From the NCBI GenBank assembly GCA_964448115.1, contig CAYUVA010000007.1:14689-78688 (forward strand): a DNA stretch of 64,000 nt, in the 5' to 3' direction. Position 1 is the first letter of the stretch; each line of letters begins with the position of its first letter. The translations under genes and the position numbers were made by a program. A model generated the notes under the pieces. It was not told the DNA's origin. It searched no databases and saw only the letters and a list, made by a program, of their open reading frames with translations. Below, piece after piece: positions 1,874-35,850 of the stretch. The stretch is from an uncultured bacterium (GTDB lineage: Bacteria > CAYUVA01).

Positions 1874-1944
1874 CTGGGAGAGGAGGATTCGAACCCCCAT
1901 AGGCGGATCCAGAGTCCGCAGTCCTACCATTGGACGATCTCCCA
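1874..1944 (-). tRNA. tRNA-Gln (anticodon CUG), coordinates approximate.
   Basis: The reverse complement has acceptor TGGGAGA/TCTCCCA (U1-A72 is typical of bacterial tRNA-Gln), anticodon stem GCGGA/TCCGC with loop CTCTGGA giving CTG, and T-arm GGGGG-TTCGAAT-CCTCC. CCA is not encoded. Confidence 0.65.
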
Positions 1945-6825: not shown

Positions 6826-6858
6826 GATCGAGAAATTCAACTAATAACGGAGGTTAAA

Positions 6859-8328
6859 ATGAGCGAAAAAATCGCTATACTAATGGTTGCTTCAGAGGTA
6901 GCTCCTTTTGCCAAGACCGGCGGGCTTGCCGATGTAGTCGGCTCCCTTCCTAAGGCACTTCAAAGGCTAAATGTGGATGTCCGCATTATTATGCCTCGCT
7001 ACAAGACCATAGATCCCCATAAGTATAAGCTCAAAAGGCGACTTGAGGATATTACTATCAAGATGGGAGACTACAGTTATCATGGCGACTTACTCGAAGG
7101 AAAACTCAATGATAAAGTGCCTATTTACCTGGTAGAAAATAAACAGTTCTACGATCGGGACAATCTATACTCCACACCTGGCGGAGATTATCCTGATAAC
7201 CTGGAGAGATTCACCTTCCTCAATCGATTCGCTATGCAAGTGCTTGACAAGATAGACTTCGTTCCGGATATCATCCATTGCCATGACTGGCAGAGCGGGT
7301 TGATACCAGCCTACATCAAGAAACTGTATAAGAACGATAAGAACTTTGGCGGAATAAAAACCATATTCACCATCCATAACATAGCCTATCAGGGCAATTT
7401 CCCCTCGGAGAAGCTTCCAATTACCGGCTTGCCTTGGGAGGTATATAACATGAACGAGGTCGAGTTCTATGGTCGCTTCAGCCTGATAAAAAGCGGCATC
7501 GTTTACTCTGATGCAATAACCACGGTAAGCGAGGGCTACAGCAGGGAGATCCAGACCGCTGAGTACGGTTATGGCTTAGAGGGGATACTCTCTCACCGAA
7601 AGGATCGCTTGTATGGCATCATAAACGGCGTGGATTACGAGCAATGGAATCCTCGAACCGATGATCTGATCGCTAAAAACTATGACCTTGATGACCTTGA
7701 GGGGAAAAAGGAATGTAAGCGCGACCTACTAAGGGAGTTCAATATTGAGCCCAACTTTGGCGGTCCCGTGCTCGGCATGATAACCCGCCTTGCAGACCAG
7801 AAAGGACTCGATCTGGTAGCCCAAATTATCCCGCACCTCCTAAGAAAGAAGGTGGTCTTCGTGCTTCTGGGCACCGGCGAGGAGAAATATCATATCCTTT
7901 TCGAGAACCTGGCAAGGCGCTATCCTAAGAAGACCGGCATCAGCATAGCCTACGATAATTCCATGGCGCACAAGATAGAAGCTGGCGCGGATATGTTCCT
8001 CATGCCATCCAGGTACGAGCCATGTGGGCTAAACCAGATGTATAGTCTAAGGTATGGCACCATCCCTATTGTAAGAGCGACCGGAGGTCTCGATGATACT
8101 ATCGTGGAGTTTGATCCCAAGACCGGACAGGGTAATGGATTCAAATTCCATCGCTACGATGCAGGGGACTTTCTTGCAGCAATAAACCGCGCTATGGAGC
8201 AGTACCGAAGAAAGAGAACCTGGGACAAGCTGATTGAGAACGCTATGCGATGCGACTTCTCCTGGGATGCCTCAGCCAAGAAGTATCTTAGGCTATACAA
8301 AAGACTGCTGGGTATAACCACAGGATAA
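6859..8328 (+). CDS. glgA: Glycogen synthase (GT5, ADP-glucose type).
   Basis: KTGGLADVVGSLPKAL is the canonical GlgA N-terminal motif, and the C-terminal half is GT-B-like. Confidence 0.85.
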   Translation: MSEKIAILMVASEVAPFAKTGGLADVVGSLPKALQRLNVDVRIIMPRYKTIDPHKYKLKRRLEDITIKMGDYSYHGDLLEGKLNDKVPIYLVENKQFYDRDNLYSTPGGDYPDNLERFTFLNRFAMQVLDKIDFVPDIIHCHDWQSGLIPAYIKKLYKNDKNFGGIKTIFTIHNIAYQGNFPSEKLPITGLPWEVYNMNEVEFYGRFSLIKSGIVYSDAITTVSEGYSREIQTAEYGYGLEGILSHRKDRLYGIINGVDYEQWNPRTDDLIAKNYDLDDLEGKKECKRDLLREFNIEPNFGGPVLGMITRLADQKGLDLVAQIIPHLLRKKVVFVLLGTGEEKYHILFENLARRYPKKTGISIAYDNSMAHKIEAGADMFLMPSRYEPCGLNQMYSLRYGTIPIVRATGGLDDTIVEFDPKTGQGNGFKFHRYDAGDFLAAINRAMEQYRRKRTWDKLIENAMRCDFSWDASAKKYLRLYKRLLGITTG

Positions 8329-8488
8329 ACATCTTTTGAAAGGAAGCCACCATTGATAATCCAATATGACTCCATATAAAAGTCGAGGCTCGCAGAGAAA
8401 TTGCCGGCAGGGTCGTTGAAGGAATACTTGAATTATTCTAAAAAAATATGACTTTTTCGCCAAAAGAGAAATTATGTTTAAAGAAGAT

Positions 8489-8517
8489 TTGTTCAAAATG
8501 AATAAATATGCTATATA
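8489..8517 (+). promoter_or_regulatory. Candidate sigma70 promoter for the GH57 operon.
   Basis: TTGTTC, a 17-nt spacer and TATATA sit in an AT-rich 220-nt intergenic region about 30 nt upstream of the ORF at 8548. Confidence 0.3.
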
Positions 8518-8547
8518 AGTAATGAATATAGAAATATTTCAATTATA

Positions 8548-10734
8548 TTGAAAATGAAGGACAGGTTGAAAATCTGCATACTCTGGCATCACCACCAGCC
8601 ATATTACATCATAAAAGCGCATAAAAGAGCCGTGCTGCCCTGGGTTAGGATGCACTGCTATAAGGATTATGTGGATATGCCGATGATCGCCTCCAGGTAT
8701 CCTGCAATAAAGACCACCTTCAACCTGGTGCCATCGCTTATCAAGCAGATACTCGATTATCAAAGCCATGATGTGATGGATGACTTCGAGGAGCTTTCGT
8801 TTAAGAATCCAAGTCATCTTTCAGGTGAGGATAGAATATTCATCGCCAGGAATTTCTTCTCGGTGAACTACGACAACTGCATCGCTTCGCTTCCACGATA
8901 TAAAGAGCTGCATTCCAAGAAAGCCATGCTAGGTGATGCTCCCATACCGCCTGATCTTTTCAGCGATCAGGAGCTGATCGATTTGCAGGTTCTATTCAAT
9001 ATAGCCTGGTGTGGAAATCATCTTCGAGAAAATACCGCCCTGCAAGAGTTGATTAAAAAGGGGAGCAACTACCATGAACAGGATAAGAAAAGGCTTAGAG
9101 AAATACTTAAAAGCCACCTGGCATCGGTCATACCCACCTATAGAGAGCTGGCTGAACAGGGCATTATTTCACTTACGACATCCCCCTTCTATCACCCCAT
9201 TTTGCCATTGATTTATGATAACTACATGGCTAAGAGGTGCCAGCCTGACTTGCGGTTACCCAATACAAATTTCAGGCAACCAGAAGACGCAAGAAAGCAG
9301 GTGGCCGAGGCGATCGAGCTTCACAAGCGCACCTTTGGAGTCAGACCTAAAGGCTGCTGGACCCCCGAGGGGTCTGTATCCCCCGAGATTATCGAGCTGT
9401 TGGCAGAGAACGGTTTCGCCTGGTGTGCATCCGATGAGATGATATTGAAAAAAAGCCTTAAAATGTCGGGGTTGGAGCAAGATACTGGCTGGAAGTACCT
9501 CCCCTATCGATACAAGACCGCTCATGGCGAGGTGGTAATATTCTTTCGAGATCAGAAGCTTTCCGATCTCATCGGCTTTTCCTATGCTAAGATGGGTGCC
9601 AATGAAGCTGCCGGCGACTTTGTCAACCGGTTGCATGAGATCAGGGACACTCTCCCGGATGATGGAAAGCCTTATGTGGTAAGTGTTATACTTGATGGGG
9701 AGAACGCCTGGGAGTGGTTTCCGAAGAACGGGAAGGAGTTCTTGGAAAACCTTTATGAATCTCTTTCAGGCTCAGAAAACCTTCAAGTCATAAGCTTCGA
9801 TAACTACCTTGAGGGATTGTGTAAGTCGTTGCCGGTGCTACCCAAGCTGTACAGCGGCTCTTGGATCAAAGCCGATTTCTCCACCTGGATCGGACATGAG
9901 GAGAAGAACCGGGCATGGGATCTGCTTTATAAGGCTAGACAGGATATCCAGTCCCACATCGATCATTCGGCAAAAATAGATAAGCAAAAAATTGTTGAAG
10001 CGATGGGTTGTTTATACAGGGCTGAAGGAAGCGACTGGTTCTGGTGGTATGGAGATGATAACTTTACCAGCTTCGCTGCCGAGTTCGACTATATCTTTCG
10101 TCAACACCTGAAGGAAGCCTATCATGCTTTGGGATTGGCTCCCGATAGTCGGCTTGATGAGCCGATAAAAACCAACATAAACATCGTAAAAAACATTGTT
10201 CAGCCTACCGGAATAGTTACCGCACAGATAGATGGCATGGTAAGCGATTACTATGAGTGGCTTAATGCTGGCTTTTATGATCCCGCACCTAGCCTTGGCA
10301 CAATGAAGATGGGAGAAAAGATAATAGAGGGGATGTACTTCGGATGCGACAGGGAGTACTTATTTATAAGGCTTCAACCTGTGAACGGGAAGCAGAGTGT
10401 TATTGAGCAGATCGATCGCATAAGGCTGACCATGGCTGATACCAATAGGATAATTGTTATCCTCAAGCGTCAGGGAGTAATATATACTGTGGAATCAATT
10501 AGACTTAATAGCAGCCTGATCGAAGAAGACGAAAACGGTTTCATAGGCATGTCAGGAGAGATTGTTGAGCTTAGAGCACCGCTGATCTATATTAAGAGCC
10601 ATGACTTAAAATGCTTTTCCTTCAGCGTTGAGCTTTATTATAATAATGAGTTAATACAAAGAATTCCGCTATCAGGGAGCCTGGAAACCTTTTATCCTAC
10701 GGAGGAATTCCTGGCAGAGAACTGGATTGTATAA
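8548..10734 (+). CDS. Glycoside hydrolase family 57 protein (amylopullulanase / alpha-amylase-like).
   Basis: The N-terminus ILWHHHQPYY carries the GH57 HQP motif. The protein is about 700 aa with GH57 core features. The true start may be the ATG at 8554. Confidence 0.7.
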   Translation: MKMKDRLKICILWHHHQPYYIIKAHKRAVLPWVRMHCYKDYVDMPMIASRYPAIKTTFNLVPSLIKQILDYQSHDVMDDFEELSFKNPSHLSGEDRIFIARNFFSVNYDNCIASLPRYKELHSKKAMLGDAPIPPDLFSDQELIDLQVLFNIAWCGNHLRENTALQELIKKGSNYHEQDKKRLREILKSHLASVIPTYRELAEQGIISLTTSPFYHPILPLIYDNYMAKRCQPDLRLPNTNFRQPEDARKQVAEAIELHKRTFGVRPKGCWTPEGSVSPEIIELLAENGFAWCASDEMILKKSLKMSGLEQDTGWKYLPYRYKTAHGEVVIFFRDQKLSDLIGFSYAKMGANEAAGDFVNRLHEIRDTLPDDGKPYVVSVILDGENAWEWFPKNGKEFLENLYESLSGSENLQVISFDNYLEGLCKSLPVLPKLYSGSWIKADFSTWIGHEEKNRAWDLLYKARQDIQSHIDHSAKIDKQKIVEAMGCLYRAEGSDWFWWYGDDNFTSFAAEFDYIFRQHLKEAYHALGLAPDSRLDEPIKTNINIVKNIVQPTGIVTAQIDGMVSDYYEWLNAGFYDPAPSLGTMKMGEKIIEGMYFGCDREYLFIRLQPVNGKQSVIEQIDRIRLTMADTNRIIVILKRQGVIYTVESIRLNSSLIEEDENGFIGMSGEIVELRAPLIYIKSHDLKCFSFSVELYYNNELIQRIPLSGSLETFYPTEEFLAENWIV

Positions 10735-10753
10735 GATCTAAAAGGAAAGCTTT

Positions 10754-12895
10754 ATGAACAAGATAAATTTTATCTTCGGTATCCATTGCCATCAGCCGAT
10801 CGGCAACTTCGATTTCGTAATCGAGGATGCCTATCATAAAGCATATTTACCGTTTTTGGAGACTTTAGGTCGTTTTCCTGATATCAAGCTGGTGATGCAC
10901 TATAGCGGTTGCCTCCTGGAGTGGCTGGAAAAGAATCACCCTGAATATCTTGAGATATTGGCTAAGTTGGTGGAAGATAACCAGGTTGAGCTGCTTGGGG
11001 GTGCTTTTTATGAGCCGATAATACCGGTTATCCCTCCACAAGATGCGATTGGGCAGATAATAATGATGCGCAATTATCTGAAGGAACGGTTTGGAGTACA
11101 GCCAAATGGAATCTGGTTGCCTGAACGCGTCTGGGAACCACATCTGCCCGACATATTACATGAGGCTGGGATCGAATATCTTGTGGTTGATGATTTCCAT
11201 TTCAAGCTAGCTGGAAGACAGGACGAGGACCTGGTTGGCTATTTTACCACCGAGCATATTGGAAAGAAGGTTAATGTATTTCCTATATCTGAGAGGCTGA
11301 GATATCTCATACCGTTTAGGTCGGTGCAGGAAACCATCGATCACCTGAGCCGGTTCGCTAACGAAAGCGGAAGTAATCTCCAGGTCATGACCGATGATGG
11401 GGAGAAGTTCGGCATCTGGCCGGGCACTTATAATCTTTGCTATTCCCAGGGGTGGGTGAGTAAATTCTTCCAGGCGCTGGTCGAACAAAACTCCTGGCTG
11501 GAACTGACCACCTTTTCAGAGTATGTAAAAAAATCTAAGCCTCTAGGCAGGATCTATCTTCCTGGTGCATCTTACTTCGAGATGAGCGAATGGGCATTGG
11601 ATAGCGGCATGAGCGAGGCATTCAAGAGCCTGATCGATGAGCTGAATAAACAGGAAAAGCTTGAGTTGTACAAGCCGTTTCTGCAAGGTGGTATATGGCG
11701 AAATTACCTATCCAAGTATCCCGAGTCGAACCAGATGCACAAAAAGATGATCTGGGTTCAAAAAAAGGTGATGGCAGCGCTCGGCGATGATATCGAGTAT
11801 AGCAATAAAAACGAGATGCTCGCTGAGTTTTATCGCGGGCAGTGCAATTGCGCATATTGGCATGGTGTGTTCGGTGGTCTTTACCTGCCGCATCTAAGGC
11901 GCGCTATCTACCAGAAACTAATAAATGCTGAGGTACTTGCGAATAAAGCCCTTGGAGCATTTGATGATAAACCAAAGATCGATGTGGAAGACTTCGATGG
12001 CGACGGCACCAAGGAGATAATCTATAGCAGCCCTAAATTTAACCTGGTGATATCTCCCGCTTATGGCGGCGCTATCGTGGAATGGGATATAAATGACAAG
12101 GGGTTGAACCTGATCAACACACTTTCCAGACGACATGAGGCATATCACAGGGAGATGCTAAAAAGCTCCAAGGAGGATATAAAAGAATATGAGACCCCGA
12201 GCATCCATGACCTCAACAAAAAAGGGCAACACCTTGCGCAATACCTTGACTATGATTGGCATAGAAGGGTCAGCTTTATCACTCACTTTTTAAGCCCTAG
12301 CACAAACCTTGATGACTATAGAAGGTGCAAGTTTTATGACCTAGGAGATTTCACCCTGGAACCGTTTGATTACACCTACGAAATAGATGGAGGTGTTACC
12401 AGAATAACCATGCATAGAAGAGGATCGCTTGCTAGCCTGGGGGGGAGGATACCCTTTGAGGTTCAAAAGACTATGATGATCGATTCTGAATCCAATGAGA
12501 TGGTTCTGGAGACAAAGGTAACCAATAGCTCGCAGCATAACCTTCTTATCTGGTTTGGAAACGAGTGGAACTTCGCGCTTTCAGGTAGTAAAAAACATGC
12601 ATTTCTTCGATTCGGAGATCCGCCAGGCAAGAAAAGAAGCATCCACGAGGCAGGACAAGTACATCATACCCAGCTAGCCGAGCTGGTTGATGAGCTTTTT
12701 AACCTTTCCATTGAGATCTCATTCGACCAGTGCTCAACTATATGGTTTTTCCCCGTGCAGACCATCTCGCAGTCGGAGAGCGGTTTTGACAAGACATATC
12801 AAGGGACAACCATTTTTGCCAGCGCAAAAAACAATATCGCAAAGGGAGAAAGCTCAATATGTAGAACCATGATAAAGATCACCGACTTTTTATGA
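10754..12895 (+). CDS. Glycoside hydrolase family 57 protein (4-alpha-glucanotransferase / amylopullulanase-like paralog).
   Basis: FGIHCHQPIGNF... is a GH57 N-terminal signature, and the protein is paralogous to the adjacent GH57 genes. Confidence 0.7.
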   Translation: MNKINFIFGIHCHQPIGNFDFVIEDAYHKAYLPFLETLGRFPDIKLVMHYSGCLLEWLEKNHPEYLEILAKLVEDNQVELLGGAFYEPIIPVIPPQDAIGQIIMMRNYLKERFGVQPNGIWLPERVWEPHLPDILHEAGIEYLVVDDFHFKLAGRQDEDLVGYFTTEHIGKKVNVFPISERLRYLIPFRSVQETIDHLSRFANESGSNLQVMTDDGEKFGIWPGTYNLCYSQGWVSKFFQALVEQNSWLELTTFSEYVKKSKPLGRIYLPGASYFEMSEWALDSGMSEAFKSLIDELNKQEKLELYKPFLQGGIWRNYLSKYPESNQMHKKMIWVQKKVMAALGDDIEYSNKNEMLAEFYRGQCNCAYWHGVFGGLYLPHLRRAIYQKLINAEVLANKALGAFDDKPKIDVEDFDGDGTKEIIYSSPKFNLVISPAYGGAIVEWDINDKGLNLINTLSRRHEAYHREMLKSSKEDIKEYETPSIHDLNKKGQHLAQYLDYDWHRRVSFITHFLSPSTNLDDYRRCKFYDLGDFTLEPFDYTYEIDGGVTRITMHRRGSLASLGGRIPFEVQKTMMIDSESNEMVLETKVTNSSQHNLLIWFGNEWNFALSGSKKHAFLRFGDPPGKKRSIHEAGQVHHTQLAELVDELFNLSIEISFDQCSTIWFFPVQTISQSESGFDKTYQGTTIFASAKNNIAKGESSICRTMIKITDFL

Positions 12896-12979
12896 GCTTG
12901 AATCTCATGATAGGTATATCGGCTAATGGATTTTTCACAGGGCAACAAACATAGCCCTTAATAGCAAGGAAGAGAGGCC

Positions 12980-14062
12980 ATGGATATAAATAAAGATAAT
13001 AAAAAGCTAATCGAGCCGGTATCGGAGCTAAGACATGATCCGATACAGAGAAGATGGGTTATCGTGGCTACTGCACGAGGTGGAAGACCTCACGATTTCT
13101 CTGTAATTGATGATAGATCCCAAGAAGGCAAGTTCTGTCCATTTTGTCCTGGGAATGAGCACAAAACTCCAAAGGAGATCCTGGCTTATAGAGACCCCAA
13201 CACTGAGCCTAATACTCCGGGGTGGGAACTGAGGGTAATACCGAACAAGTTTCCTGCGCTTGCAATCGAGGGAGAGCTTAATCGCCAGGGATTCGGGTTA
13301 TATGACAAGATGCGCGGGCTGGGTGCTCACGAGGTGGTGGTGGAGACCCCTAATCACGACCAGCATATGGCTGATATGCCCCTGGAGCACCTAGTGAAGG
13401 TAATATATGCCTACCGAGAGAGGCTTGAGGACCTGATGAAGGACACACGCTTTAGATATGTCCTTATCTTCAAGAATTGGGGATTGACTGCTGGAGCTTC
13501 GCTATCGCACCCGCACACGCAGATAATCGCCACTCCCATAACTCCCAGAACGGTCGCAATTGAGCTACAGTCAGCCCAGGATCACTTCCGGGTAAAGGAA
13601 CGCTGTCTTTTTTGTGATATGATAGCCCAAGAGGTCGCATCCAATGAGAGGATAATTCAAAGTAATAATCGTTTCTTAGCAATAGCGCCTTATGCCTCGA
13701 GATTCCCCTTCGAGTCATTTATTATACCGAAAAGGCACTCATATTCGTTTACTGAGATCGACGATGATGGTATCTGGGATCTGGCACGAATGCTAAAGGA
13801 TATACTAGGTAGATTGAAGATATATCTCAAGGATCCCCCATTCAACTGGCTGCTGCATACCTCGCCCAATATCAATATGACACCGAAAAGACCGGGTTAC
13901 TGGCAGACCATCCAGTTCGATTACCACTGGCATATCGAGGTAATACCACGACTGACCAAGATGGCTGGATTCGAGTGGGGAACCGGGTTCTATATAAATC
14001 CAACTCCCCCTGAGACCGCGGCTGAAGAGCTAAGAGCCGTTGATTTAACAAAGGATAGATAA
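12980..14062 (+). CDS. GalT-like hexose-1-phosphate nucleotidyltransferase (HIT superfamily, galactose-1-phosphate uridylyltransferase family), possibly an ADP-glucose phosphorylase.
   Basis: A zinc knuckle CPFCPGNEH and the HIT motif HPHTQI are present. Its stop overlaps the start of the downstream GH57 branching enzyme (TAATGG). Confidence 0.75.
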   Translation: MDINKDNKKLIEPVSELRHDPIQRRWVIVATARGGRPHDFSVIDDRSQEGKFCPFCPGNEHKTPKEILAYRDPNTEPNTPGWELRVIPNKFPALAIEGELNRQGFGLYDKMRGLGAHEVVVETPNHDQHMADMPLEHLVKVIYAYRERLEDLMKDTRFRYVLIFKNWGLTAGASLSHPHTQIIATPITPRTVAIELQSAQDHFRVKERCLFCDMIAQEVASNERIIQSNNRFLAIAPYASRFPFESFIIPKRHSYSFTEIDDDGIWDLARMLKDILGRLKIYLKDPPFNWLLHTSPNINMTPKRPGYWQTIQFDYHWHIEVIPRLTKMAGFEWGTGFYINPTPPETAAEELRAVDLTKDR

Positions 14063-15783
14063 TGGATGGACAACAAATCAAGGGATATTTTGCCCTGGTG
14101 CTGCATAGCCACTTGCCTTATGTTCTTGGACACGGCAACTGGCCCCACGGGACCGACTGGCTTTTTGAGGCTGCCGCAGAGACCTATGTACCCTTAATAG
14201 AGATACTTGATGAGCTTATAAAAGAAGGCTTATCGCCAAAGATAACCATCGGCATTACGCCTATACTCGCCGAACAGCTCGCTGATGAGCGATTTGCAGC
14301 CGGCTTTGATAATTATCTTGATATAAAGCTAAGCGCAGCAAAAGATAATTATACCGAGTTTAAAAGGCTAGGCGAACCTAACCTGCAACGAGTAGCCGAA
14401 TACTGGAATCAGAAATATACAAGGGTCAAGGAGCTATTTGTTTCCCGCTGCCAGAGGAGCATAACCAGTGTCTTTGCTGAGCTGCAAAAACAAGGACATA
14501 TCGAGATCATCACCTGCGCAGCCACCCATGGATACCTTCCCTTGCTCGGATATGACCGATGTATCAATGCCCAGGTGGCGCAGGGAGTGAAGACATACCA
14601 ACGTATCTTCGGTCAGAAGCCTAAAGGGATCTGGCTTCCCGAATGCGCATATCGACCAGGTTATTTGTGGTCGCCACCACTGAAGGTAAAGGGTCTTGAA
14701 CGGACTAAAAGACAGGGCATAGAGAAGATACTAGCAAAAAATGATATTGAATATTTTATCATTGACTCGCATCTGCTGACTGGCGGGGAGGCGATTGGCG
14801 TTTATCTCTCACGCTTCAAGGCACTTAAGAGACTTTGGGAGCAGGCAAAAAAAGGCTATCGACCACGAAAAGAGAAGACCGAACTAGCGCCATACAATAT
14901 CTATCAACTCGCCTCGGAGGATGATCTGCCCCCAGTAACTGTTTTTGCCAGAGACCCCAAGACCGGCTTGCAGGTATGGAGCGGAGAATGGGGTTATCCT
15001 GGGAACGGAGCATATCTCGACTTCCACAAGAAACACTTTCCTGGTGGTCTGCGATACTGGAGAGTAACCGGCGCCAATTTAGACCTGGCGCAGAAGGAGC
15101 AATATAACCCTGATTGGATACCCGATACAGTTGATGAACAATCCCGGCACTTCGTTGATTTAATATGCAATACAATTGATGAAAGGGCGACTAAATCTGA
15201 TGATCCACCGATAATCACAGCACCTTTTGACACTGAGCTATTCGGACACTGGTGGCACGAGGGAATTCTGTGGCTGAAGCAGGTGATAAAAAGGCTCTCT
15301 AGCAACCCTAATGTACATCCGATTACCTGTTCTGAATATAAACAAAAGTTTCCACCGGAGACGGTGATAACGCTCCCGGAAGGCTCCTGGGGAGAGGGAG
15401 GATTCCACTACATCTGGCTCAATGAGGACACCCTTTGGACTTGGGAGAGGATTTACACCATAGAGCGTGATCTTCTCGATATGCTCGACAAATGCCCTCA
15501 GCATAAGAGTCATGATATGGTTTCAATATTGAAGCAGGCGGCGCGAGAGCTGATGTTGCTCGAATCTTCTGACTGGCAGTTCCTTATCAGCACCTACAGC
15601 GCAAGAGATTACGCCGAACTGCGTCTTGCCAGGCACTATGAGAATTGTTCCAGGATGCTAAGGATGGCTGAGAAATTATTGGATGGTTATGCCTTGAGTC
15701 AACAAGAGATTGAGTTCGTGGAAACTCAGGCATCGATAAAAAACATTTTTCCAGACATTGAGCTTGATTTCTACAAGCCTTGA
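14062..15783 (+). CDS. GH57-family 1,4-alpha-glucan branching enzyme.
   Basis: ALVLHSHLPYV...GNWPHGTDWLFEAAAETYVPLI matches the N-terminus of Thermus/Thermococcus-type GH57 branching enzymes. Confidence 0.75.
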   Translation: MDGQQIKGYFALVLHSHLPYVLGHGNWPHGTDWLFEAAAETYVPLIEILDELIKEGLSPKITIGITPILAEQLADERFAAGFDNYLDIKLSAAKDNYTEFKRLGEPNLQRVAEYWNQKYTRVKELFVSRCQRSITSVFAELQKQGHIEIITCAATHGYLPLLGYDRCINAQVAQGVKTYQRIFGQKPKGIWLPECAYRPGYLWSPPLKVKGLERTKRQGIEKILAKNDIEYFIIDSHLLTGGEAIGVYLSRFKALKRLWEQAKKGYRPRKEKTELAPYNIYQLASEDDLPPVTVFARDPKTGLQVWSGEWGYPGNGAYLDFHKKHFPGGLRYWRVTGANLDLAQKEQYNPDWIPDTVDEQSRHFVDLICNTIDERATKSDDPPIITAPFDTELFGHWWHEGILWLKQVIKRLSSNPNVHPITCSEYKQKFPPETVITLPEGSWGEGGFHYIWLNEDTLWTWERIYTIERDLLDMLDKCPQHKSHDMVSILKQAARELMLLESSDWQFLISTYSARDYAELRLARHYENCSRMLRMAEKLLDGYALSQQEIEFVETQASIKNIFPDIELDFYKP

Positions 15784-20780: not shown

Positions 20781-23270
20781 CTATGCTCTCCCCTCTTTTA
20801 ACCTAAGGTCATATTGCTTGCGGCTTTGCGGGTTGGAGAGCACCTCGTAGGCGCGGTTGAGGTAGCTGAGGATCTCTGTCGCCTGATCAGCGAGGTCCTC
20901 CAAGCCTCGTGCATGAAGCGTATCGGGGTGATACAGGAAAGCTAATTTGCGATATGAATTGCGTATGGAGTTTACATCCGCATCCCTTGATACGCCAAGA
21001 AGCTCGTAGTAGTTGTGTAACCTCAACTTCTTATGGAATTGCTGGATATCTGATACAAGTTTTTCCTTAGTAAGCCATGGTGTTGATTCATCATCGAAGA
21101 AAATGCCGGAGCTTTCGGTCGATTGGCGCACCTTTTGTGGCTCCTTGACAACCGCCTTTTCCTCCAGCTTTACCAGACCAAAGACCTTGAACATATAGAT
21201 AGTTTTAAGAACTACTTCTTCGGGTAATCCACTGATGACATGAATATCCTCTATGGTGTTCATGTTATTGATGAAGCTATATAGCTGTCTTTCGCGCATT
21301 GATAAGGATAGGCTGATAAACTTCTGTTTGCTTTTATCGGTGAGGGTTACCAGAAGGTTCCTTGATGGAAGTGCTTTCTTTATATACGAAAGATCCTTTA
21401 GATTTCTAATCCCCTCCAGTATTATGTCCTCGCCTTCAATCTGGTGAAGTCCGATTGGCTCTGATTCCTTGAGCGTGTAGAAGTAATACTTGCCCTCGGC
21501 AATCTCGAATAATTTAAGTAACAATCCCTTTAAATATAGGCTTCTGAACATCATAAGTTCATCTTTGGAGATGAGTCCGAATTCAAGCACGGCAGATTCC
21601 TCGGAGCGATTCGGTTTTCTTCGCTGGAACTCCTTCACCTGCTTGTAGTCAGCCTTGGAGATCTTATTTGCCTGGAGAAGTACAAAACTAAGTCCCTGTT
21701 GTTCTTGGGTTGTCTTTATATCTACAAAGTTACCTTTGGAAAGCTCGATAATGGTCTTATCCATTCCGTGATCAATTGCCAGGATTCCATCCATTTTTTT
21801 TACAATCAACATAGCCATTAACTCTGCGATCGGTTTATCGATAAGATTGCCGCCGAACTTGGGTGTCAAGGTAGCAATGCGGTCTGCAAGGTCTGGCCTT
21901 TCGGATATGATCTCAGCAGAATCTTCTTCAGAGATGTATTCATCAAGAAAAGCTGGTTTTGCATCATCTTTATCATCCTGGACTTGGCTGACCTGTGCGC
22001 CCTCGATCTCCTTTAATGATTTAACATAAATTATCGAAGTACAATATAATCCGAAGAGAAGTATTTCGACTCTTGGGATGGAGAGTTTTCCCATTTTGAT
22101 AACTTCCTCTTGAGTTCGAACTGAATTGATAAGGCTTAGGATCTTTTGCTCATTATTTGAGAGGTTAACCCTTTGGAATGCGATAATAGGATCCGGATTC
22201 AAAGCTGGAACTGAACTTGCTGGGGGCATAAAATGAGATATATAGTCATAGCTCTCAACTGTTCTTATGTAGCTCATTATAAGGTTAGCAGTACTAATAT
22301 TCAGTTTTATCTTCTCTTCAAGCGGTATGGTTGAGAATTTGAAGCTGTAGCTGCCGTCCATGAAGTGCAATGTATCCAGGATTATCTTTTGTACTTGTAG
22401 CTTTATAATGATCTCAAGTTCGTTTTCGGTCAGCAAGCCTAGTTCTACCAATATCTGCCCGAAACGCTTGTTCGGCTTCTCCTTCTGGATTTTCTCAGCA
22501 GCCTGTAGATCCTTTTGGGTGAGTCTTCCCGAGCGAAGAAGTATAGTATCTAATCTTTGCAGCAGCCTGTTTGACCTGGCGAAGACTATATTGCCATTTA
22601 AAAAATAAAGCTGCCGAACATTATCATCATTCTTGATGGTTAAGATTCCTGTTTTTCTCTGCATGTAAAGGCGGTTGACCAGAAGACAGATATTAGTCTT
22701 GTGAAAAGATCCTTTCTTAATATCTATTTTCCAATCAAAAGCTGGTTCAATCTTCTTTGTTATACTACTATACTCAGAGCTGATCTTTTTTACTGGTTTT
22801 TTCCCGTTTTCGAGTGTTTTTATCCTTTTTACAAGATTTTCATCCGCATTTGGGTTCTCAACATGGTTCTCATCTGCTTGATGATTGGACTCAGATAAGC
22901 GCAGGAGATCGTTGATAATGCTCTTTATCTGCTCAAAGTCAGAAGGCTTCTCCAGGGTTTTTATCTTGACAGAGTCTGTCTTTGCTAGCTTTTTTACTTG
23001 GGTAACAATTTTTGTATCCGAGATTACAAGGATCGGAAAACTGTTATCTTTTGCGGTCTTGAGTAGTTGGGTGAAAAGAAGCTTGAAATCGCTTTTTTCA
23101 AACGCTGGATCGATAATAAGAAGCTTGGGTGTCTCAGCCCAAAGCAGGTTATAGCCGGACACAGGGTCATTTGCCAGTACTGCTCGATATCCCAGGTTAT
23201 TGAGGGAATTTTTTAAGTAAAGCCCGAATCGCTTATCTTTGTCCAGTATTGCTATCTTTTCCTTTGCCAT
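20781..23270 (-). CDS. Response-regulator receiver fused to a duplicated DUF4388-like module and a C-terminal DnaJ (J) domain.
   Basis: The N-terminus IAILDKDKR...LLIIDPAF...ILVISD...KP is receiver-like. Two DUF4388-like modules (KTGILTIKNDDNVRQLYFLNGNIVFA...RFGQILVELGLLTENEL and MDGILAIDHG...LEFGLISKDEL) are each followed by a related helical module of about 90 aa. The C-terminal J domain is NYYELLGVSRDADVNSIRNSYRKLAFLYHPD..., with an HPD motif. Confidence 0.7.
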   Translation of the reverse strand: MAKEKIAILDKDKRFGLYLKNSLNNLGYRAVLANDPVSGYNLLWAETPKLLIIDPAFEKSDFKLLFTQLLKTAKDNSFPILVISDTKIVTQVKKLAKTDSVKIKTLEKPSDFEQIKSIINDLLRLSESNHQADENHVENPNADENLVKRIKTLENGKKPVKKISSEYSSITKKIEPAFDWKIDIKKGSFHKTNICLLVNRLYMQRKTGILTIKNDDNVRQLYFLNGNIVFARSNRLLQRLDTILLRSGRLTQKDLQAAEKIQKEKPNKRFGQILVELGLLTENELEIIIKLQVQKIILDTLHFMDGSYSFKFSTIPLEEKIKLNISTANLIMSYIRTVESYDYISHFMPPASSVPALNPDPIIAFQRVNLSNNEQKILSLINSVRTQEEVIKMGKLSIPRVEILLFGLYCTSIIYVKSLKEIEGAQVSQVQDDKDDAKPAFLDEYISEEDSAEIISERPDLADRIATLTPKFGGNLIDKPIAELMAMLIVKKMDGILAIDHGMDKTIIELSKGNFVDIKTTQEQQGLSFVLLQANKISKADYKQVKEFQRRKPNRSEESAVLEFGLISKDELMMFRSLYLKGLLLKLFEIAEGKYYFYTLKESEPIGLHQIEGEDIILEGIRNLKDLSYIKKALPSRNLLVTLTDKSKQKFISLSLSMRERQLYSFINNMNTIEDIHVISGLPEEVVLKTIYMFKVFGLVKLEEKAVVKEPQKVRQSTESSGIFFDDESTPWLTKEKLVSDIQQFHKKLRLHNYYELLGVSRDADVNSIRNSYRKLAFLYHPDTLHARGLEDLADQATEILSYLNRAYEVLSNPQSRKQYDLRLKEGRA

Positions 23271-23436
23271 AGAGCTTATTTATTAACCTTTTCCCACCTT
23301 CTTTCACACTTTTCCATTTTGACACTACCCATCATCTTAGAAGCATTGCAAGATCCATGCAAATCTTGAACCTTCCAATCCTTTCGGGTCTATAGTATAT
23401 ACTAGAGTCTGTTGACTTGACAAGGAGTTAAATACC

Positions 23437-24447
23437 ATGCCTTTCATTACTCGATTTAAGGTTTTCATGATTGCCTTTGCGCCTTTTTTGCTGGCAACAG
23501 TGGTTTTGTTCGCGCTGTCGCAGGTTAATATCATACCCAGGAATCCGGTTCCATTCGACGGCGGTAAGTTTATGGCTTTATACGATACCAGTCATCAGGA
23601 CAATCAACTTGAGATCAGTTGGATGAAAGATGAAAAACACTATCGATTCCACGGTGCAATCCAGGGGGATCTCAAAGCCAGCGAGCATGGAGAAGCCCTG
23701 AGTGAAAAGGATTGGACCTATTACCATCCCTTATGGCTTCCCTTCGCCAACCCCGTAACCACCCTTAAGACTGAAAATCCTAGGTTCGACATATACGATG
23801 CACTGGGCATTCTGGGGGATGCGGGGGAAAAATACACTGCCATACAGGAGGGAAGTTTTATCCTGTGGGATGAGATCCTGCAAAGCCAGGCGTCTTACAG
23901 TTATGGAATCTTCGACCTGAACAACAGCCGGGTCGCCTCAGCAGTTTACGACGCCACTTCAGGCTTGCTTTTCAGGCTCCAGGTCAAGAAATCGGACAAG
24001 CCTGATTTAAGGTTAATAAAAACGAGCTTTCCCATAAGCCGCAACCGGGTCGCCCTCTTGATCATAACTCCCCTGGCATCGCTGGCATTGCTCATACTTC
24101 TATTTCGGCGAGCTGGGAGATTTGAGGGAGCCAGGAGAGCCTATTTGAAAAAGCAAGCATGGTTCGTGATGCTAGGCATGATATGCGTCATGACCGATAC
24201 GCTGATGGACCTATGGTATCCGTTTGCGCTGGGGAACCTTGTTCCTATTGCATGGCATCTTGGGCTGGTGGTCGTATTTATGATATTGGGTGGCAGGGCT
24301 GCCTATCCTGTGTTTATCGAGCTGGCAATGGTGTTTTTCTTCTGGATATACCATCATGGAACTGCGCCGACAATGGCTTATATTCCCGGAGCCATAATCT
24401 CTTTTGTAATCCTGCTCGATATGCAGGGTAGGGGAGATGGAGAATAG
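23437..24447 (+). CDS. Hypothetical membrane protein: an N-terminal TM anchor, a periplasmic domain of about 190 aa, and a C-terminal bundle of four TM helices.
   Basis: AAGGAG Shine-Dalgarno 8 nt upstream. Hydrophobic segments are present at both ends. The stop overlaps the downstream CPBP gene. Confidence 0.5.
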   Translation: MPFITRFKVFMIAFAPFLLATVVLFALSQVNIIPRNPVPFDGGKFMALYDTSHQDNQLEISWMKDEKHYRFHGAIQGDLKASEHGEALSEKDWTYYHPLWLPFANPVTTLKTENPRFDIYDALGILGDAGEKYTAIQEGSFILWDEILQSQASYSYGIFDLNNSRVASAVYDATSGLLFRLQVKKSDKPDLRLIKTSFPISRNRVALLIITPLASLALLILLFRRAGRFEGARRAYLKKQAWFVMLGMICVMTDTLMDLWYPFALGNLVPIAWHLGLVVVFMILGGRAAYPVFIELAMVFFFWIYHHGTAPTMAYIPGAIISFVILLDMQGRGDGE

Positions 24448-25225
24448 TGATTCCCAAGATATGAATGACGATGCGGTAGAAAATCCGAGCTGGGGAATAA
24501 TATCGCCTATAGGTATTATCTTTTTTACATTTATATTTGTCTATTATATTTTTGGTTTTCAGTTATCAATTTATGTAAAACATATTGATAAATCAAACAG
24601 TTATAACTATTTATTATTTTCCAGCATGTTGATTCAAGATTTTATTACCATCGCTTTAGTATATTTAATAATAATTAAATTTCAGAGGGTAGCCTGGAAG
24701 GAAATCGGGTTAAAGGATTTAAAAAATATTAAAAATATCAAGTATGGTATCAAGGGGTATCTTTTAATAATTATTTCACTTATCTGTATTGGCATATTTT
24801 TTACTGGGATCGCATTTTTAATGGATAATCTCGGTTACCAGGAACTTGCCGAGGCGATAAGAAAGGAACTTGAGTTTGCTGACAAGTACTCCAAGGAGAT
24901 CCTCAAGTTATCTCTCTGGCAGATGTTGATAGCTATCTGTTTATTAGCACCCATTATTGAGGAGATTCTGAACCGGGGCATTTTATATCCACCCTTGAGG
25001 AGGCTGCTGGGAGTAAGAGCAGGTATGATAGCTACGGCACTGTTTTTTTCATTCTTTCACCTCGGGCAGGGGATTGTCGGGTTTGTTATGCGCTTTGTCA
25101 TTGGTTATATTTTAACCTGGCTCTATGAGAGAAGAAGAAATTTAGCAGCCCCGATAACCGCGCACATCATGCAGAATACGGTAACAACTTTGTTGGCAAA
25201 GTTTGTAGTTGATGTGCCTACATAG
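24437..25225 (+). CDS. CPBP-family intramembrane metalloprotease (CAAX-protease / Abi-like).
   Basis: Motifs EEILNRG (EExxxR), FFSFFH (FxxxH) and a distal HIMQN are embedded in TM helices. Confidence 0.7.
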   Translation: MENSDSQDMNDDAVENPSWGIISPIGIIFFTFIFVYYIFGFQLSIYVKHIDKSNSYNYLLFSSMLIQDFITIALVYLIIIKFQRVAWKEIGLKDLKNIKNIKYGIKGYLLIIISLICIGIFFTGIAFLMDNLGYQELAEAIRKELEFADKYSKEILKLSLWQMLIAICLLAPIIEEILNRGILYPPLRRLLGVRAGMIATALFFSFFHLGQGIVGFVMRFVIGYILTWLYERRRNLAAPITAHIMQNTVTTLLAKFVVDVPT

Positions 25226-32438: not shown

Positions 32439-33653
32439 TTAAAACGGTAGTACCCTGGTCAGGTAGAAGTAGGGCAGGAACATCGATAGAGCGATGAAGG
32501 CGACTATCAAGCCGACCGCAACCGTAATGAACGGCTCAATCAACGTTGCCACAGTATTAACCAGGTTGTCTATCTCCTTCTGATAGCTCTCGGTGATGCG
32601 TCTGAATACGGAGAGCATGTTGCCGGTCTCCTCGCCGACCGAGATGATATCTACCACCATGTCAGGGAAGATATACTCGTTTCTGAGCTGTTCTGCCAGT
32701 GTGCGCCCATCCTCCAGGGTCCTGATACCCCTCTCCAGAGCCTCCTGTAGCACGACATTGTTCGCTGCATCCTTGGCTATGCGCAGGCTGGTGATAAAGG
32801 GCACCTTTGCTGTGAGCATGGTCTGCATTAGTTGAGCGAATCGATAGATGGCAAGGTCGCGCGAGATCCTCCCTATGATTGGCAGATGTATCCCGATTCT
32901 CTGTGCCAGTGAGCGACCGGCACGAGCATGGAAAAACCATCGCACTACGAAAATCAGGATGATTATGATTATGAACATGAGAATCGAATGCCCGGCAAAG
33001 AAGTCTCCGAAACCGAGGGTCAACCGGGTGGGCCAGGGGAGGTCAGCCTGAACCGTATCGTAAACCTGTCCGAAGGTGGGGACCACGAAGATCATCAAGA
33101 AGAAAAAGGCGATGATTGCAGCGGTCAAAGTGAGGAGTGGATACATCATTGCACTGGAGATCTTCCCCCGTATCGATTCGTCGTTCTCGATGTAATCGCC
33201 GAGGATCTGGAAGGAATCCTTGAGGACGCCACCCGCCTCTGCTGCCTTTATGGTGTTGACATAAAACTCATCGAATACCCGATGATGCCGAGCCATGGCG
33301 CTTGAGATAGATGTTCCGCGCTTTACCAGGTCGGAGATATCTGCGATGGTCTTTTGCAGGTTAGGGTTTGTTATTCGATAAGCCATGATCTCCAATGCCT
33401 TTGCAGGCGCTACACCGACCGATAGCAATAGAGACATCTGGTGTGAGAACATGGCTAGCTCCTTGCGGCTCGCTCCGCCGAAGATATCTCGCCGCCAAAG
33501 CCACCGAAGACCGCGCCTGGGCTGAACTTTTGTTTTATGAAGGGAGTTCTCTATCTCCATGCCCAGTACCTGGGATTGTCCCAGCTTTTCCTTCAGGGCT
33601 TTCTGTACATCCTTTTTAGCCTCGTCCTTGGGACCTTCTTGCTTTTTACCCAT
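32439..33653 (-). CDS. Type II secretion / type IV pilus platform protein (GspF/PilC family).
   Basis: Two GspF repeats on an inner-membrane platform topology, with a C-terminal IISVGEETGNMLSVFRRITESY motif. Confidence 0.8.
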   Translation of the reverse strand: MGKKQEGPKDEAKKDVQKALKEKLGQSQVLGMEIENSLHKTKVQPRRGLRWLWRRDIFGGASRKELAMFSHQMSLLLSVGVAPAKALEIMAYRITNPNLQKTIADISDLVKRGTSISSAMARHHRVFDEFYVNTIKAAEAGGVLKDSFQILGDYIENDESIRGKISSAMMYPLLTLTAAIIAFFFLMIFVVPTFGQVYDTVQADLPWPTRLTLGFGDFFAGHSILMFIIIIILIFVVRWFFHARAGRSLAQRIGIHLPIIGRISRDLAIYRFAQLMQTMLTAKVPFITSLRIAKDAANNVVLQEALERGIRTLEDGRTLAEQLRNEYIFPDMVVDIISVGEETGNMLSVFRRITESYQKEIDNLVNTVATLIEPFITVAVGLIVAFIALSMFLPYFYLTRVLPF

Positions 33654-33661
33654 AGTGCCTC

Positions 33662-35836: not shown

Positions 35837-35850
35837 TTTATATAATCGTA

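Follow-up and report, generated by a model that had tools for sequence, protein, structure and literature searches.

Does a gene that joins a receiver-like domain, two PATAN (DUF4388/PatA_N) domains and a J domain encode a chaperone partner under two-component control? The question is raised by an 829-aa open reading frame in the 64,000-nucleotide stretch of DNA from an uncultured bacterium that was analysed here (the window). A sequence-only reading described its product as a hybrid of a response-regulator receiver, duplicated DUF4388 and a J domain, and the domain analysis confirmed this hybrid as REC, two copies of PATAN plus an extension, and a J domain with HPD (Table 1). The Pfam calls behind it are uneven; DUF4388 was found twice and DnaJ once above the cutoff, whereas Response_reg stayed below it. 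The start of the 829-aa protein matches the N-termini of its homologues in the alignment, and an identical protein, encoded on a 108-kb contig, is already in NCBI records. The strand, which is minus, was absent from the earlier description. The gene looks monocistronic. A promoter-like site 5' of the gene is suggestive only, because the count of such sites in the region is no higher than in shuffles.

Table 1. Features of the gene and of its product, with positions in the window and the basis of each assignment.
Feature	Residues	Position (nt)	Strand	Basis
Whole gene, REC-PATAN-WH-PATAN-WH-J	829 aa	20781..23270 (incl. stop codon)	minus	ORF list
Promoter-like site TTGTCA-18-TATACT, 5' of gene		23394..23423	minus	consensus scan, 10/12 matches
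Receiver-like domain	1-127	22890..23270	minus	sub-threshold Pfam/NCBIfam, PDB match, AF2 + Foldseek
Linker 1, disordered	128-178	22737..22889	minus	pLDDT <50
PATAN domain 1 (DUF4388/PatA_N, PF14332)	186-345	22236..22715	minus	Pfam 74.9 bits, cutoff 25
Alpha-clip insert 1 in PATAN 1, MshEN_N-like four-helix unit	239-292	22395..22556	minus	phmmer, Foldseek
Extension unit 1, winged-helix-like	346-425	21996..22235	minus	recurs C-terminal to PATAN in most relatives
Linker 2, acidic	426-469	21864..21995	minus	disordered over 426-457, pLDDT <50
PATAN domain 2, more divergent copy	470-637	21360..21863	minus	Pfam PF14332 35.1 bits, self-BLAST
Extension unit 2	638-706	21153..21359	minus	local HMM match; AF2 secondary structure parallels unit 1
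Amphipathic helix N-terminal to J domain	735-749	21024..21068	minus	AF2 helix
J domain	753-826; HPD 781-783 (nt 20922-20930)	20793..21014	minus	Pfam DnaJ, PDB matches
Terminator-like hairpin, 3' of stop codon		20679..20702	minus	consensus scan, not above chance for region

The J domain was detected by Pfam DnaJ (PF00226) at residues 753-821 with 63.5 bits (cutoff 27.8) and over the whole profile (positions 1-63 of 63), and it matches J domains in the PDB with E values down to 5e-12. H781-P782-D783 is located between helices II and III, and the basic residues of helix II and the AYEVL and YD motifs match E. coli DnaJ in the J-domain alignment. Thus the canonical C-terminal J domain proposed from the letters alone is borne out, and it does not fail the J-domain HMM. 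The helix that precedes it (residues 735-749) aligns with similar segments in the relatives P0006, P0007, P0011 and P0015. Full-length NCBIfam models of DnaJ and CbpA align at residues 750-822 only, with 31-59 bits against cutoffs of 338-619. These models cover the J part alone, and therefore the protein is without a G/F region, a zinc-finger and a DnaJ C-terminal client domain, none of which was found in it by Pfam or NCBIfam.

The central part of the protein consists of two diverged copies of a module of ~220 aa. Each copy consists of PATAN, into which a four-helix alpha-clip is inserted, and of a winged-helix-like unit C-terminal to it. Envelopes of Pfam PF14332 cover residues 186-338 (74.9 bits) and 479-631 (35.1 bits), both above the cutoff of 25, and BLASTP aligned residues 194-390 with 481-676 (E=8e-16, 25% identity), so the proposed internal duplication holds. 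Module 1 is clearly nearest to module 1 of P0006 in pairwise scores, and module 2 has diverged too far for such an assignment. The unit that follows each PATAN domain had been taken for a helical one of about 90 aa; it is instead an alpha/beta unit of ~70-80 aa (346-425 and 638-706), winged-helix-like. It has no Pfam model and gave no significant family or PDB match; weak, non-significant matches were obtained to the winged-helix families PKMT_2nd, HTH_27, TrmB and Z-alpha. Designed helical repeats, the top PDB matches to the extension unit, were treated as compositional artefacts. In the model of the first module, extension 1 packs on PATAN 1 as one compact module (pLDDT 93.7, pTM 0.88).

The four-helix insert within each PATAN domain was overlooked in the earlier note. 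In the AF2 models the helices lie at 240-301 and 527-589, between beta-strands of the PATAN cores. An alpha-helical insertion in PATAN was described by Makarova 2006, as cited in bioRxiv 10.1101/2021.06.11.447907. The sequence of alpha-clip 1 is RLDTILLRSGRLTQKDLQAAEKIQ-KEKPNK-RFGQILVELGLLTENELEIIIKLQ. Against the PDB, phmmer matched it to Thermus PilF (6f8l, E=2.4e-7) and V. cholerae MshE (5htl, E=1.5e-3), and Foldseek placed it on c-di-GMP-bound MshE (5htl_A) with a probability of 0.99 and an rmsd of 1.0 A over 54 columns (31% identity). Furthermore, the PATAN alpha-clip and an N-terminal repeat of PilB share 36% identity (E=7e-6). The MshEN motif is a tandem of 24-residue RLGxx(L/V/I)(L/V/I)xxG(L/V/I)(L/V/I)xxxxLxxxLxxQ repeats with a 5-residue spacer. 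Half-site 2 of alpha-clip 1 (269-292) passes the strict motif, but half-site 1 (239-262) fails the relaxed one, with G3 replaced by D241, h11 by R249 and L21 by E259, and the spacer is 6 residues, not 5. Both Gln24 positions (Q262 and Q292) are kept; Gln at that of half-site 1 is rare in the family (27/202 inserts). In alpha-clip 2 (within PATAN 2, about 527-574) both half-sites are degenerate in the motif test. NCBIfam c-di-GMP_motif (NF053729) gave 30.3 bits on the 829-aa protein, below the cutoff of 38, and Pfam MshEN (PF05157) had no match in it, whereas the PilB of the window, used as the positive control, scored 70.5 and 58.9 bits, respectively. Both half-sites pass in 2 of the 202 family alpha-clips, and the class as a whole thus seems unlike a c-di-GMP receptor. 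No GGDEF or EAL genes were found in the window. The alpha-clip possibly binds c-di-GMP, but of its two half-sites one alone is intact.

The N-terminal domain has the (beta-alpha)5 fold of a receiver, with five strands and five helices alternating in the AF2 model (pLDDT 80-90). It resembles the receivers of Spo0F, RssB and FrzS in Foldseek (TM about 0.8, rmsd 2.1-2.5 A) and matches the RssB receiver in the PDB with E about 2e-4. Pfam Response_reg (PF00072) scored 18.0 bits on the whole protein and 22.2 bits on the isolated domain, below the cutoff of 30.2; the precomputed Pfam list for the identical protein contains DnaJ and PatA_N only, without PF00072; and NCBIfam DVU0259_DivK matched the receiver over its full length with 36 bits, far below its cutoff of 160. 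The acceptor Asp is not missing, as D54 aligns with the phospho-acceptor (CheY D57, Spo0F D54, PhoB D53), and S84 and K108-P109 keep the conserved beta4 Thr/Ser and beta5 Lys. The Mg2+-binding acidic pair is broken in the alignment; D10 corresponds to CheY D12, but K11 stands at CheY D13. The beta1-alpha1 loop is of the same length as that of CheY, and an extra Asp, D12, adjoins K11. The switch aromatic, Tyr106 in CheY, is Thr105, and the usual MPxxDG is absent from the beta3-alpha3 loop. D13K alone in CheY blocks phosphorylation. A CheY D13K-Y106W variant has been described as constitutively active (bioRxiv 10.1101/781468). Because Lys occupies the Mg2+-binding Asp13 position, though the acceptor Asp is kept, it is more likely that the receiver here is a phosphorylation-independent regulatory domain, locked or purely structural, than a conventional two-component switch. 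Judged by these residues, the 829-aa copy has probably lost normal phosphorylation control, although some phosphorylation is still possible with D54, S84 and K108 kept and D12 beside K11.

The receivers of other family members were also aligned. Asp is present at the CheY D13 position in 11 of the 17, and the second Asp is replaced by S, T or N in several members, which suggests recurrent loss of phospho-chemistry. Receivers are canonical (DD/ED-D-S/T-K) in P0006, P0007, P0079, P0110 and P0148, but not in P0003, and close relatives with canonical receivers are probably phospho-regulated, to go by these signatures. Phospho-control is therefore plausible in the family at large, but the 829-aa protein is a doubtful case. 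The phospho-receiver claim of the sequence-only reading stands for the fold, D54, S84 and K108 and gives way at K11, the beta3-alpha3 loop, T105, the Pfam score and the missing neighbouring kinase; likewise, its receiver-controlled J protein is reasonable for the class, whose members include canonical receivers, and not secure for this one.

No histidine kinase is encoded next to the gene. The kinase at 2701, which had been suggested as a KaiC-like cognate, is a PAS-GAF-HisKA-HATPase protein, encoded on the opposite strand at a distance of 15.6 kb. Its KaiC-like identity was rejected, as the N-terminal 250 aa gave no KaiC match even at E<=1. Among the relatives, the gene for P0148 lies immediately 3' of those for a HAMP-HisKA kinase and an NtrC-type regulator. 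The called-gene lists around six relatives with REC, PatA_N and DnaJ contain no recurrent neighbours, no dnaK and no pilus genes, and L001, the only relative locus compared, shows no synteny with the window. A PilB-type ATPase with MshEN repeats, a PilC-type platform protein and a pilin are encoded 9 kb from the gene on the same strand, with several unrelated genes in between. An Rfam scan of the window yielded two tRNAs only, and the window proteins that have database records are unnamed singletons.

The family census was taken from an exhaustive HMMER search (133 cluster representatives at E<=1e-30). PAT-EXT-J is the dominant architecture, found in 100 of the 154 sequences censused. The J domain is present in 116 of the 154, and 112 of these J domains have HPD. 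REC occurs together with J in nine, three of which have the exact layout of the 829-aa protein. Thus PATAN-extension-J is the core of the family, to which REC is added at the N-terminus in some members. Precomputed Pfam calls list REC, PatA_N and DnaJ together in six other proteins (P0003, P0006, P0007, P0079, P0110 and P0148). A word-index homologue search retrieved 5 relatives with the full protein and 18 matches, few of them named, with a PATAN-EXT-J alignment; with a full-architecture alignment it was swamped by generic REC-containing kinases. Scanning the genome collection with the single protein turned up a single match, short and marginal, to a Bdellovibrionaceae MAG. Public names of the relatives are generic, e.g., 'OmpR family regulator/CbpA' and 'Chaperone protein DnaJ'. 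The architecture had not been recognised as a described class. It is not singular, given these six proteins and the commonness of PATAN-J, but no published description of PATAN-J proteins was found in the literature.

These data can be set against other explanations of the protein. In a genuine two-component phospho-switch, a cognate histidine kinase would phosphorylate D54, and the conformational change in the receiver would control whether the J domain is exposed or where it is targeted, and hence recruitment of DnaK. The fold with D54, S84 and K108, the canonical receivers of the nearest relatives and the kinase beside P0148 argue for such a switch. K11, the diverged beta3-alpha3 loop and switch aromatic, the low Response_reg scores, the lack of an adjacent kinase (that at 2701 being distant, on the other strand and not KaiC-like) and the repeated loss of the second Asp among relatives make it rather doubtful for this protein. 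It may also be that alpha-clip 1 binds c-di-GMP and thereby gates partner binding or J availability, which is compatible with the explanation that we prefer. Homology to solved MshEN structures with close superposition, the strict half-site 2 and the two retained Gln are consistent with this, and Wang et al. (PMC5013675) indicate that perfect motif conservation may be dispensable. We nevertheless regard c-di-GMP gating as unlikely, given the three mismatches in half-site 1, the longer spacer, the NCBIfam score far from that of PilB, the missing Pfam MshEN match and the absence of GGDEF and EAL genes from the window.

Regulation through DNA, with the winged-helix-like extensions binding DNA and the J domain auxiliary as in CbpA, would fit the weak winged-helix matches and the automated name 'OmpR family regulator/CbpA' of relatives. 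However, those matches are non-significant, the extension is packed tightly on PATAN in the model and is not free-standing, and the NCBIfam CbpA and OmpR-family models cover the J or REC parts only. PatA-type proteins were at one time predicted to bind DNA; the work in cyanobacteria speaks against this (bioRxiv 10.1101/2021.06.11.447907). We consider DNA binding very improbable here. A general housekeeping chaperone of the DnaJ/CbpA type, to which the canonical J domain and the 'Chaperone protein DnaJ' label of some relatives would point, is effectively refuted by the domain content, in which everything typical of such a chaperone outside the J domain is absent and full-length models score far below their cutoffs.

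The gene therefore seems likely to encode a specialised class C/type III J-domain co-chaperone, targeted by its PATAN modules to a partner that is plausibly the pilus motor, and carrying a degenerate receiver. The PATAN modules would be the targeting or client-binding part, and flexible linkers would allow the C-terminal J domain to bind DnaK in its ATP form and set off hydrolysis of the nucleotide. The chaperone would thus be loaded on the PATAN-bound partner, leading to its remodelling, assembly or disassembly. To our knowledge, essentially no PATAN partners are known outside cyanobacteria. The most plausible class of partner would be a type IV pilus/T2SS-type motor or an associated polarity complex, and the pilus motor is plausible because the PilB/PilC cluster lies 9 kb away. 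In cyanobacteria, PATAN binds the N-terminal domain of the pilus ATPase PilB1 and the platform protein PilC, and it suffices for output without the receiver (bioRxiv 10.1101/2021.06.11.447907). Nostoc DnaK1/DnaJ3 interacts with PilB (PMC9239167), and M. xanthus SglK is the predicted partner of the J protein SgmC, which T4P motility requires (bioRxiv 10.64898/2026.08.28.747804). To link the co-chaperone proposed here to the pilus is to extrapolate between phyla and between proteins whose domains are ordered differently. A bolder and quite improbable version is that PATAN-J proteins are the missing adaptors of dedicated DnaK to T4P/T2SS motors and act as a dual-input switch, in which the alpha-clip senses c-di-GMP and the receiver a kinase signal, for motor assembly or disassembly. 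The PATAN modules would then dock on the alpha-clip-bearing PilB N-terminus and on PilC, and, if true, this would explain how SglK in Myxococcus and DnaK1 in cyanobacteria are targeted to pili.

The specificity of bacterial Hsp70 systems comes through their J-domain partners, and we know of few specialised bacterial J proteins with a known target. The census defines a large, widespread, unnamed and unstudied family of proteins that link a J domain to PATAN modules and, in a subset, also carry receivers. In Myxococcus and cyanobacteria, genetics shows that pilus-dependent motility and exopolysaccharide production depend on dedicated DnaK paralogues. PATAN is known from elsewhere as a domain that binds the motor of type IV pili, and the PATAN-J family is therefore a testable candidate for the targeting step of DnaK. 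In its members with REC, the co-chaperone itself carries signal-transduction domains. The value is lower for this particular gene, with its uncultured organism, its degenerate receiver and a partner that is predicted only.

Known systems share parts of this design. The cyanobacterial PATAN-REC proteins PatA, PixG, PixE and LsiR also combine PATAN, with its alpha-clip insert, as the output or interaction domain with a receiver, and orphan PatA-type members are often phosphorylation-independent (bioRxiv 10.1101/2021.06.11.447907). In them an N-terminal PATAN precedes a C-terminal REC and there is no further effector, whereas the 829-aa protein is non-cyanobacterial, runs from REC through PATAN twice to J, and adds a winged-helix-like unit to each PATAN and J as a second effector. 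In class C JDPs (DjlA, HscB, Shewanella AtcJ and Nostoc DnaJ3), J with HPD is likewise the sole DnaJ-like part, beside a separate targeting region; here that region is PATAN plus WH, twice, and a receiver, and no characterised J protein with a PATAN and WH targeting module was found in the literature. For Nostoc DnaK1/DnaJ3 the comparison is one of role, which is played at the motor of the type IV pilus (PMC9239167). MshEN receptors (V. cholerae MshE and the N-termini of PilB/GspE) share the four-helix fold and the 24-residue motif in the second half of the alpha-clip, but in the 829-aa protein the alpha-clip sits inside PATAN and not before an ATPase, its first half-site is degenerate, its spacer is 6 residues and its score is below the NCBIfam threshold. 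The likeness to M. xanthus SglK/GrpS/SgmC, which serves EPS and T4P motility, is conceptual, a dedicated DnaK with a predicted specialised J partner that pilus-dependent motility requires; that system is defined genetically, the 829-aa protein by prediction only. Finally, M. xanthus PilZ-DnaK of the CdbS system (PMC10313047) also wires the Hsp70 machinery to second-messenger signalling, but there PilZ is fused to DnaK itself, whereas in the present case it is the J protein that bears the signalling-type domains.

Window 20781-23270 is occupied by one ORF of 829 aa on the minus strand, whose N-terminus (MAKEKIAILD...) aligns with the N-termini of its homologues. A protein identical to it is already recorded on an NCBI contig of 108 kb. 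The sequence-only reading had described the product as a receiver fused to a duplicated DUF4388 module and a J domain with an HPD motif. Pfam and a BLASTP self-comparison, in which residues 194-390 matched 481-676 (E=8e-16, 25% identity), bore this out; the central halves are homologous, the C-terminus passes the J-domain HMM, and by these comparisons the architecture is present well past chance expectation. In the AlphaFold2 model of the whole protein (input alignment of 14 sequences), the domains are confident (pLDDT 80-90) and disordered linkers lie at residues 128-178, 426-457 and 707-733. The J domain is directly preceded by an amphipathic helix, which has alignable counterparts in the relatives P0006, P0007, P0011 and P0015 and may be an extension of the J domain or a regulator of it.

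Features of the window protein and of the window
Feature	Residues	Window position	Strand	Remarks
Position of CheY D12 (acidic pair, Mg2+)	D10
Position of CheY D13 (acidic pair, Mg2+)	K11
Position of CheY D57 (phospho-acceptor)	D54
Position of CheY T87 (conserved Thr/Ser)	S84
Position of CheY Y106 (switch aromatic)	T105
Position of CheY K109 (conserved Lys)	K108
PatA_N/DUF4388 copy 1	186-338			Pfam 74.9 bits, cutoff 25
Alpha-clip, module 1	240-301			inside PATAN core, four helices
Extension unit, module 1	346-425			three to four helices, two short strands
PatA_N/DUF4388 copy 2	479-631			Pfam 35.1 bits, cutoff 25
Alpha-clip, module 2	527-589			inside PATAN core, four helices
Extension unit, module 2	638-706			three to four helices, two short strands
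Amphipathic helix	735-749	21024-21068	-	AlphaFold2 and alignment
DnaJ domain	753-821			Pfam 63.5 bits, cutoff 27.8
HPD tripeptide	781-783			in J domain
tRNA genes (two)		1742-1813, 1874-1944	-	Rfam
PAS-GAF-HisKA-HATPase kinase		2701-5181	+
Glycogen metabolism cluster		5602-15783	+
CPBP/Rce1-like protease		24437-25225	+
PilC/GspF-type platform		32439-33653	-
PilB/GspE-type ATPase		33662-35836	-	N-terminal MshEN repeats
SurA_N/HHH-like protein		35851-36765	-
Prepilin-type gene		36765-37361	-

This protein belongs to a sizeable family. When 1.84 billion cluster representatives were searched exhaustively with HMMER, 133 proteins scored E<=1e-30. A local HMM census then covered 154 proteins, namely the window protein, four others from the first word-index search and 149 other matches of the exhaustive search. 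A J domain was found in 116 of the 154, and 112 of these 116 have the HPD. Most common was PAT-EXT-J, a PATAN (PatA_N, DUF4388; PAT) followed by a winged-helix-like unit (EXT) and the J domain (100 proteins). PAT-EXT-PAT-EXT-J was found in four, REC-PAT-EXT-J in five, REC-PAT-PAT-J in one (P0154), and REC-PAT-EXT-PAT(-EXT) lacking the J domain in eleven. The exact layout of the window protein, REC-PAT-EXT-PAT-EXT-J, is shared by two relatives, P0006 and P0007; P0006 (847 aa) matches it end to end at 33% identity. Independent precomputed Pfam calls also place Response_reg, PatA_N and DnaJ together in P0003, P0006, P0007, P0079, P0110 and P0148. Myxococcota and Nitrospirota are among the taxa of the relatives, whose public names are generic and conflicting ('response regulator', 'Chaperone protein DnaJ', 'OmpR family regulator/CbpA', 'DUF4388 domain-containing protein'). 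In the literature searched, no paper contained both DUF4388 and DnaJ, and the matches for PATAN with DnaJ described no such fusion.

The N-terminal 127 residues have a (beta-alpha)5 topology in the AlphaFold2 model and resemble the receivers of Spo0F, RssB, PhoP and FrzS (Foldseek, TM about 0.8, rmsd 2.1-2.5 A). We aligned this domain with CheY, Spo0F, PhoB and 17 family receivers. It had been proposed that the receiver would place chaperone recruitment under two-component phosphorylation control. The fold, D10, S84, K108 and the phospho-acceptor D54, which aligns with CheY D57, agree with this, but K11, T105 and a Pfam Response_reg score of 18-22 bits, under the cutoff of 30.2, do not. The beta1-alpha1 loop is equal in length to that of CheY, and therefore the assignment of Lys to the D13 position is not an alignment artefact. 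The segment after beta3 is DPAFEKSDF, versus the usual D-x-x-M-P-x-x-D-G. CheY D13K alone reportedly blocks phosphorylation yet mimics activation. The CheY double mutant D13K-Y106W is a standard variant with constitutive activity (bioRxiv 10.1101/781468). Canonical residue sets are found in P0006, the closest relative, and in P0007, P0079, P0110 and P0148. The D13 position is Ser or Thr in several REC-PATAN-PATAN proteins, so phospho-chemistry seems to have been lost repeatedly in the family. This echoes the orphan PatA-type regulators of Synechocystis, which are phosphorylation-independent (bioRxiv 10.1101/2021.06.11.447907). Judged by its residues, the receiver of this particular member is degenerate, and it is more likely to be locked or phosphorylation-independent.

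Module 1 (residues 179-425), modelled alone with 59 relatives aligned, gave a pLDDT of 93.7 and a pTM of 0.88. The model shows the PATAN and the following unit as a single predicted compact body. The PATAN core is mixed alpha/beta, and no solved homologue of it was found by Foldseek. The unit following each PATAN, which had been read as a helical unit of about 90 aa, does exist, but it spans about 70-80 aa and includes two short strands; the alpha-clip, an insert within the PATAN, had been overlooked. No Pfam model matches the extension units, and matches to winged-helix families are weak and non-significant. Two weak, mutually independent signals concern NPRL2, a GATOR1 subunit: the whole module (window 21996-22736, minus strand) against 9o5a_C and 7t3b_C (Foldseek TMq 0.27-0.29, non-significant), and the extension-unit profile against 6ces_N (E=0.22) together with one faint Pfam NPR2 match, also non-significant. 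These could hint at a longin/roadblock plus winged-helix ancestry of PATAN.

The alpha-clip appears by sequence to be an MshEN-type unit that has kept only half of the c-di-GMP signature. The module 1 insert matches solved MshEN domains of Thermus PilF (6f8l, E=2.4e-7) and V. cholerae MshE (5htl, E=1.5e-3), the latter alignment spanning the entire 53-residue c-di-GMP site. The MshEN signature consists of two copies of RLGxx(L/V/I)(L/V/I)xxG(L/V/I)(L/V/I)xxxxLxxxLxxQ with a five-residue joiner (PMC5013675). That the alpha-clip binds c-di-GMP is possible, since copy 2 (RFGQILVELGLLTENELEIIIKLQ, 269-292) meets the strict motif and the modelled clip overlays on c-di-GMP-bound MshE with an rmsd of 1.0 A across 54 columns (31% identity, probability 0.99), but it is unlikely. 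In copy 1 (RLDTILLRSGRLTQKDLQAAEKIQ, 239-262), Asp stands in for the Gly of position 3, Arg for a hydrophobic residue and Glu for Leu21, and even the relaxed pattern of the same authors is not matched; the spacer is six residues. The NCBIfam model 'c-di-GMP motif, MshE-related' gives 30.3 bits, under its cutoff of 38, whereas the MshEN repeats of the window's PilB-like ATPase, the positive control, exceed it at 70.5 bits. The window protein has neither the defining motif of MshEN c-di-GMP receptors nor a score that reaches their curated cutoff. Among 202 alpha-clips from 154 family proteins, half-site 2 is well kept (R 159, G 191, G 180, L 167, Q 162), half-site 1 is poorly kept towards its end (Gln24 in 27), and only two pass at both half-sites. 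At the locus of P0079, a REC-PATAN-J relative from a Myxococcota MAG, one GGDEF and one REC-GGDEF gene lie less than 7 kb away (L006 1457-2233 and 13602-14876), which hints weakly at a c-di-GMP context there. Makarova et al. 2006, as relayed in bioRxiv 10.1101/2021.06.11.447907, had already related the PATAN insert to the N-termini of T2SS/T4P ATPases; relative to that account, the residue-level comparison with the c-di-GMP site is new.

The gene lies between plus-strand genes and has its own promoter-like and terminator-like sites, although such sites in the region are not more numerous than in shuffles; because of these features it looks monocistronic. Two Na+/H+ exchanger genes are downstream and convergent, and genes for an uncharacterised membrane protein and a CPBP protease are upstream and divergent. 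The CPBP/Rce1-like intramembrane protease gene is 1.2 kb away, and on an unrelated contig the REC-PATAN-J homologue P0003 has another such gene 3.6 kb upstream (L001 5648-6385), which may be coincidence. No kinase, dnaK, grpE or c-di-GMP enzyme gene adjoins the gene. The kinase at 2701, suggested as a KaiC-like cognate partner, shows no KaiC-like domain and is encoded 15.6 kb away on the opposite strand, which argues against this pairing; for its first 250 aa, Pfam gives nothing even at E<=1. The sampled relatives' loci have no conserved neighbourhood. Among them, only P0148 (2702-4852 on its contig) has a candidate cognate kinase, as its gene lies directly 3' of genes for a HAMP-HisKA-HATPase kinase and an NtrC-type regulator on the same strand (81-1214 and 1227-2609). 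Elsewhere in the window, the GH57-based glycogen cluster encodes a GlgC-like protein, glycogen synthase, two GH57 proteins, a GH57 4-alpha-glucanotransferase, a GalT-like protein and a GH57 branching enzyme. Besides the two tRNAs, Rfam gave no gathering-level match in the window. GC is about 46%. The window proteins found in the protein collection are singletons at 90% identity, which suggests an uncultured, poorly sampled lineage as the source.

NCBIfam DnaJ/CbpA models align to residues 750-822 alone, and no further DnaJ-type domain was found. The window protein thus classifies as a class C J protein, and therefore specificity must reside in the remaining polypeptide. In Synechocystis, the PATAN domain by itself binds PilB1 at its N-terminal part and PilC at its cytoplasmic N-terminus (bioRxiv 10.1101/2021.06.11.447907). 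Nostoc DnaK1, together with DnaJ3, is located at active pilus motors and binds PilB (PMC9239167). In M. xanthus, the DnaK SglK is needed for EPS and T4P motility, and its predicted J partner, SgmC, is itself encoded by a T4P-motility gene (bioRxiv 10.64898/2026.08.28.747804). In the window, about 9 kb separate the gene from a type IV pilus/T2SS cluster on its strand (32439-37361), and a PATAN alpha-clip is 36% identical to one PilB N-terminal repeat (E=7e-6). We infer that both PATAN-WH modules would dock the protein onto a specific partner, plausibly a pilus ATPase, platform or polarity complex, and that the J domain, via flexible linkers, would then load DnaK onto it. A modulating role for the receiver is probable, for instance through module occlusion or dimerisation. 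We favour this overall picture of a partner-docked J protein, with some reserve; within it, the pilus motor as the actual target is plausible but clearly less secure.

Compared with known systems, the window protein is not a PatA-type regulator, from which it differs in its reversed domain order and additional effector, nor a DnaJ/CbpA-type chaperone, as the G/F, zinc-finger and C-terminal domains are missing. By its domain matches it is a genuine J-domain protein and equally a genuine PATAN protein. Its parts are all known already, and the idea that J proteins can be specialised is not new. In the literature searched, neither the PATAN-J family nor the subset with receivers seems to have been described. 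Through this family, a connection of dedicated DnaK systems to pilus or polarity machinery can be put to the test.
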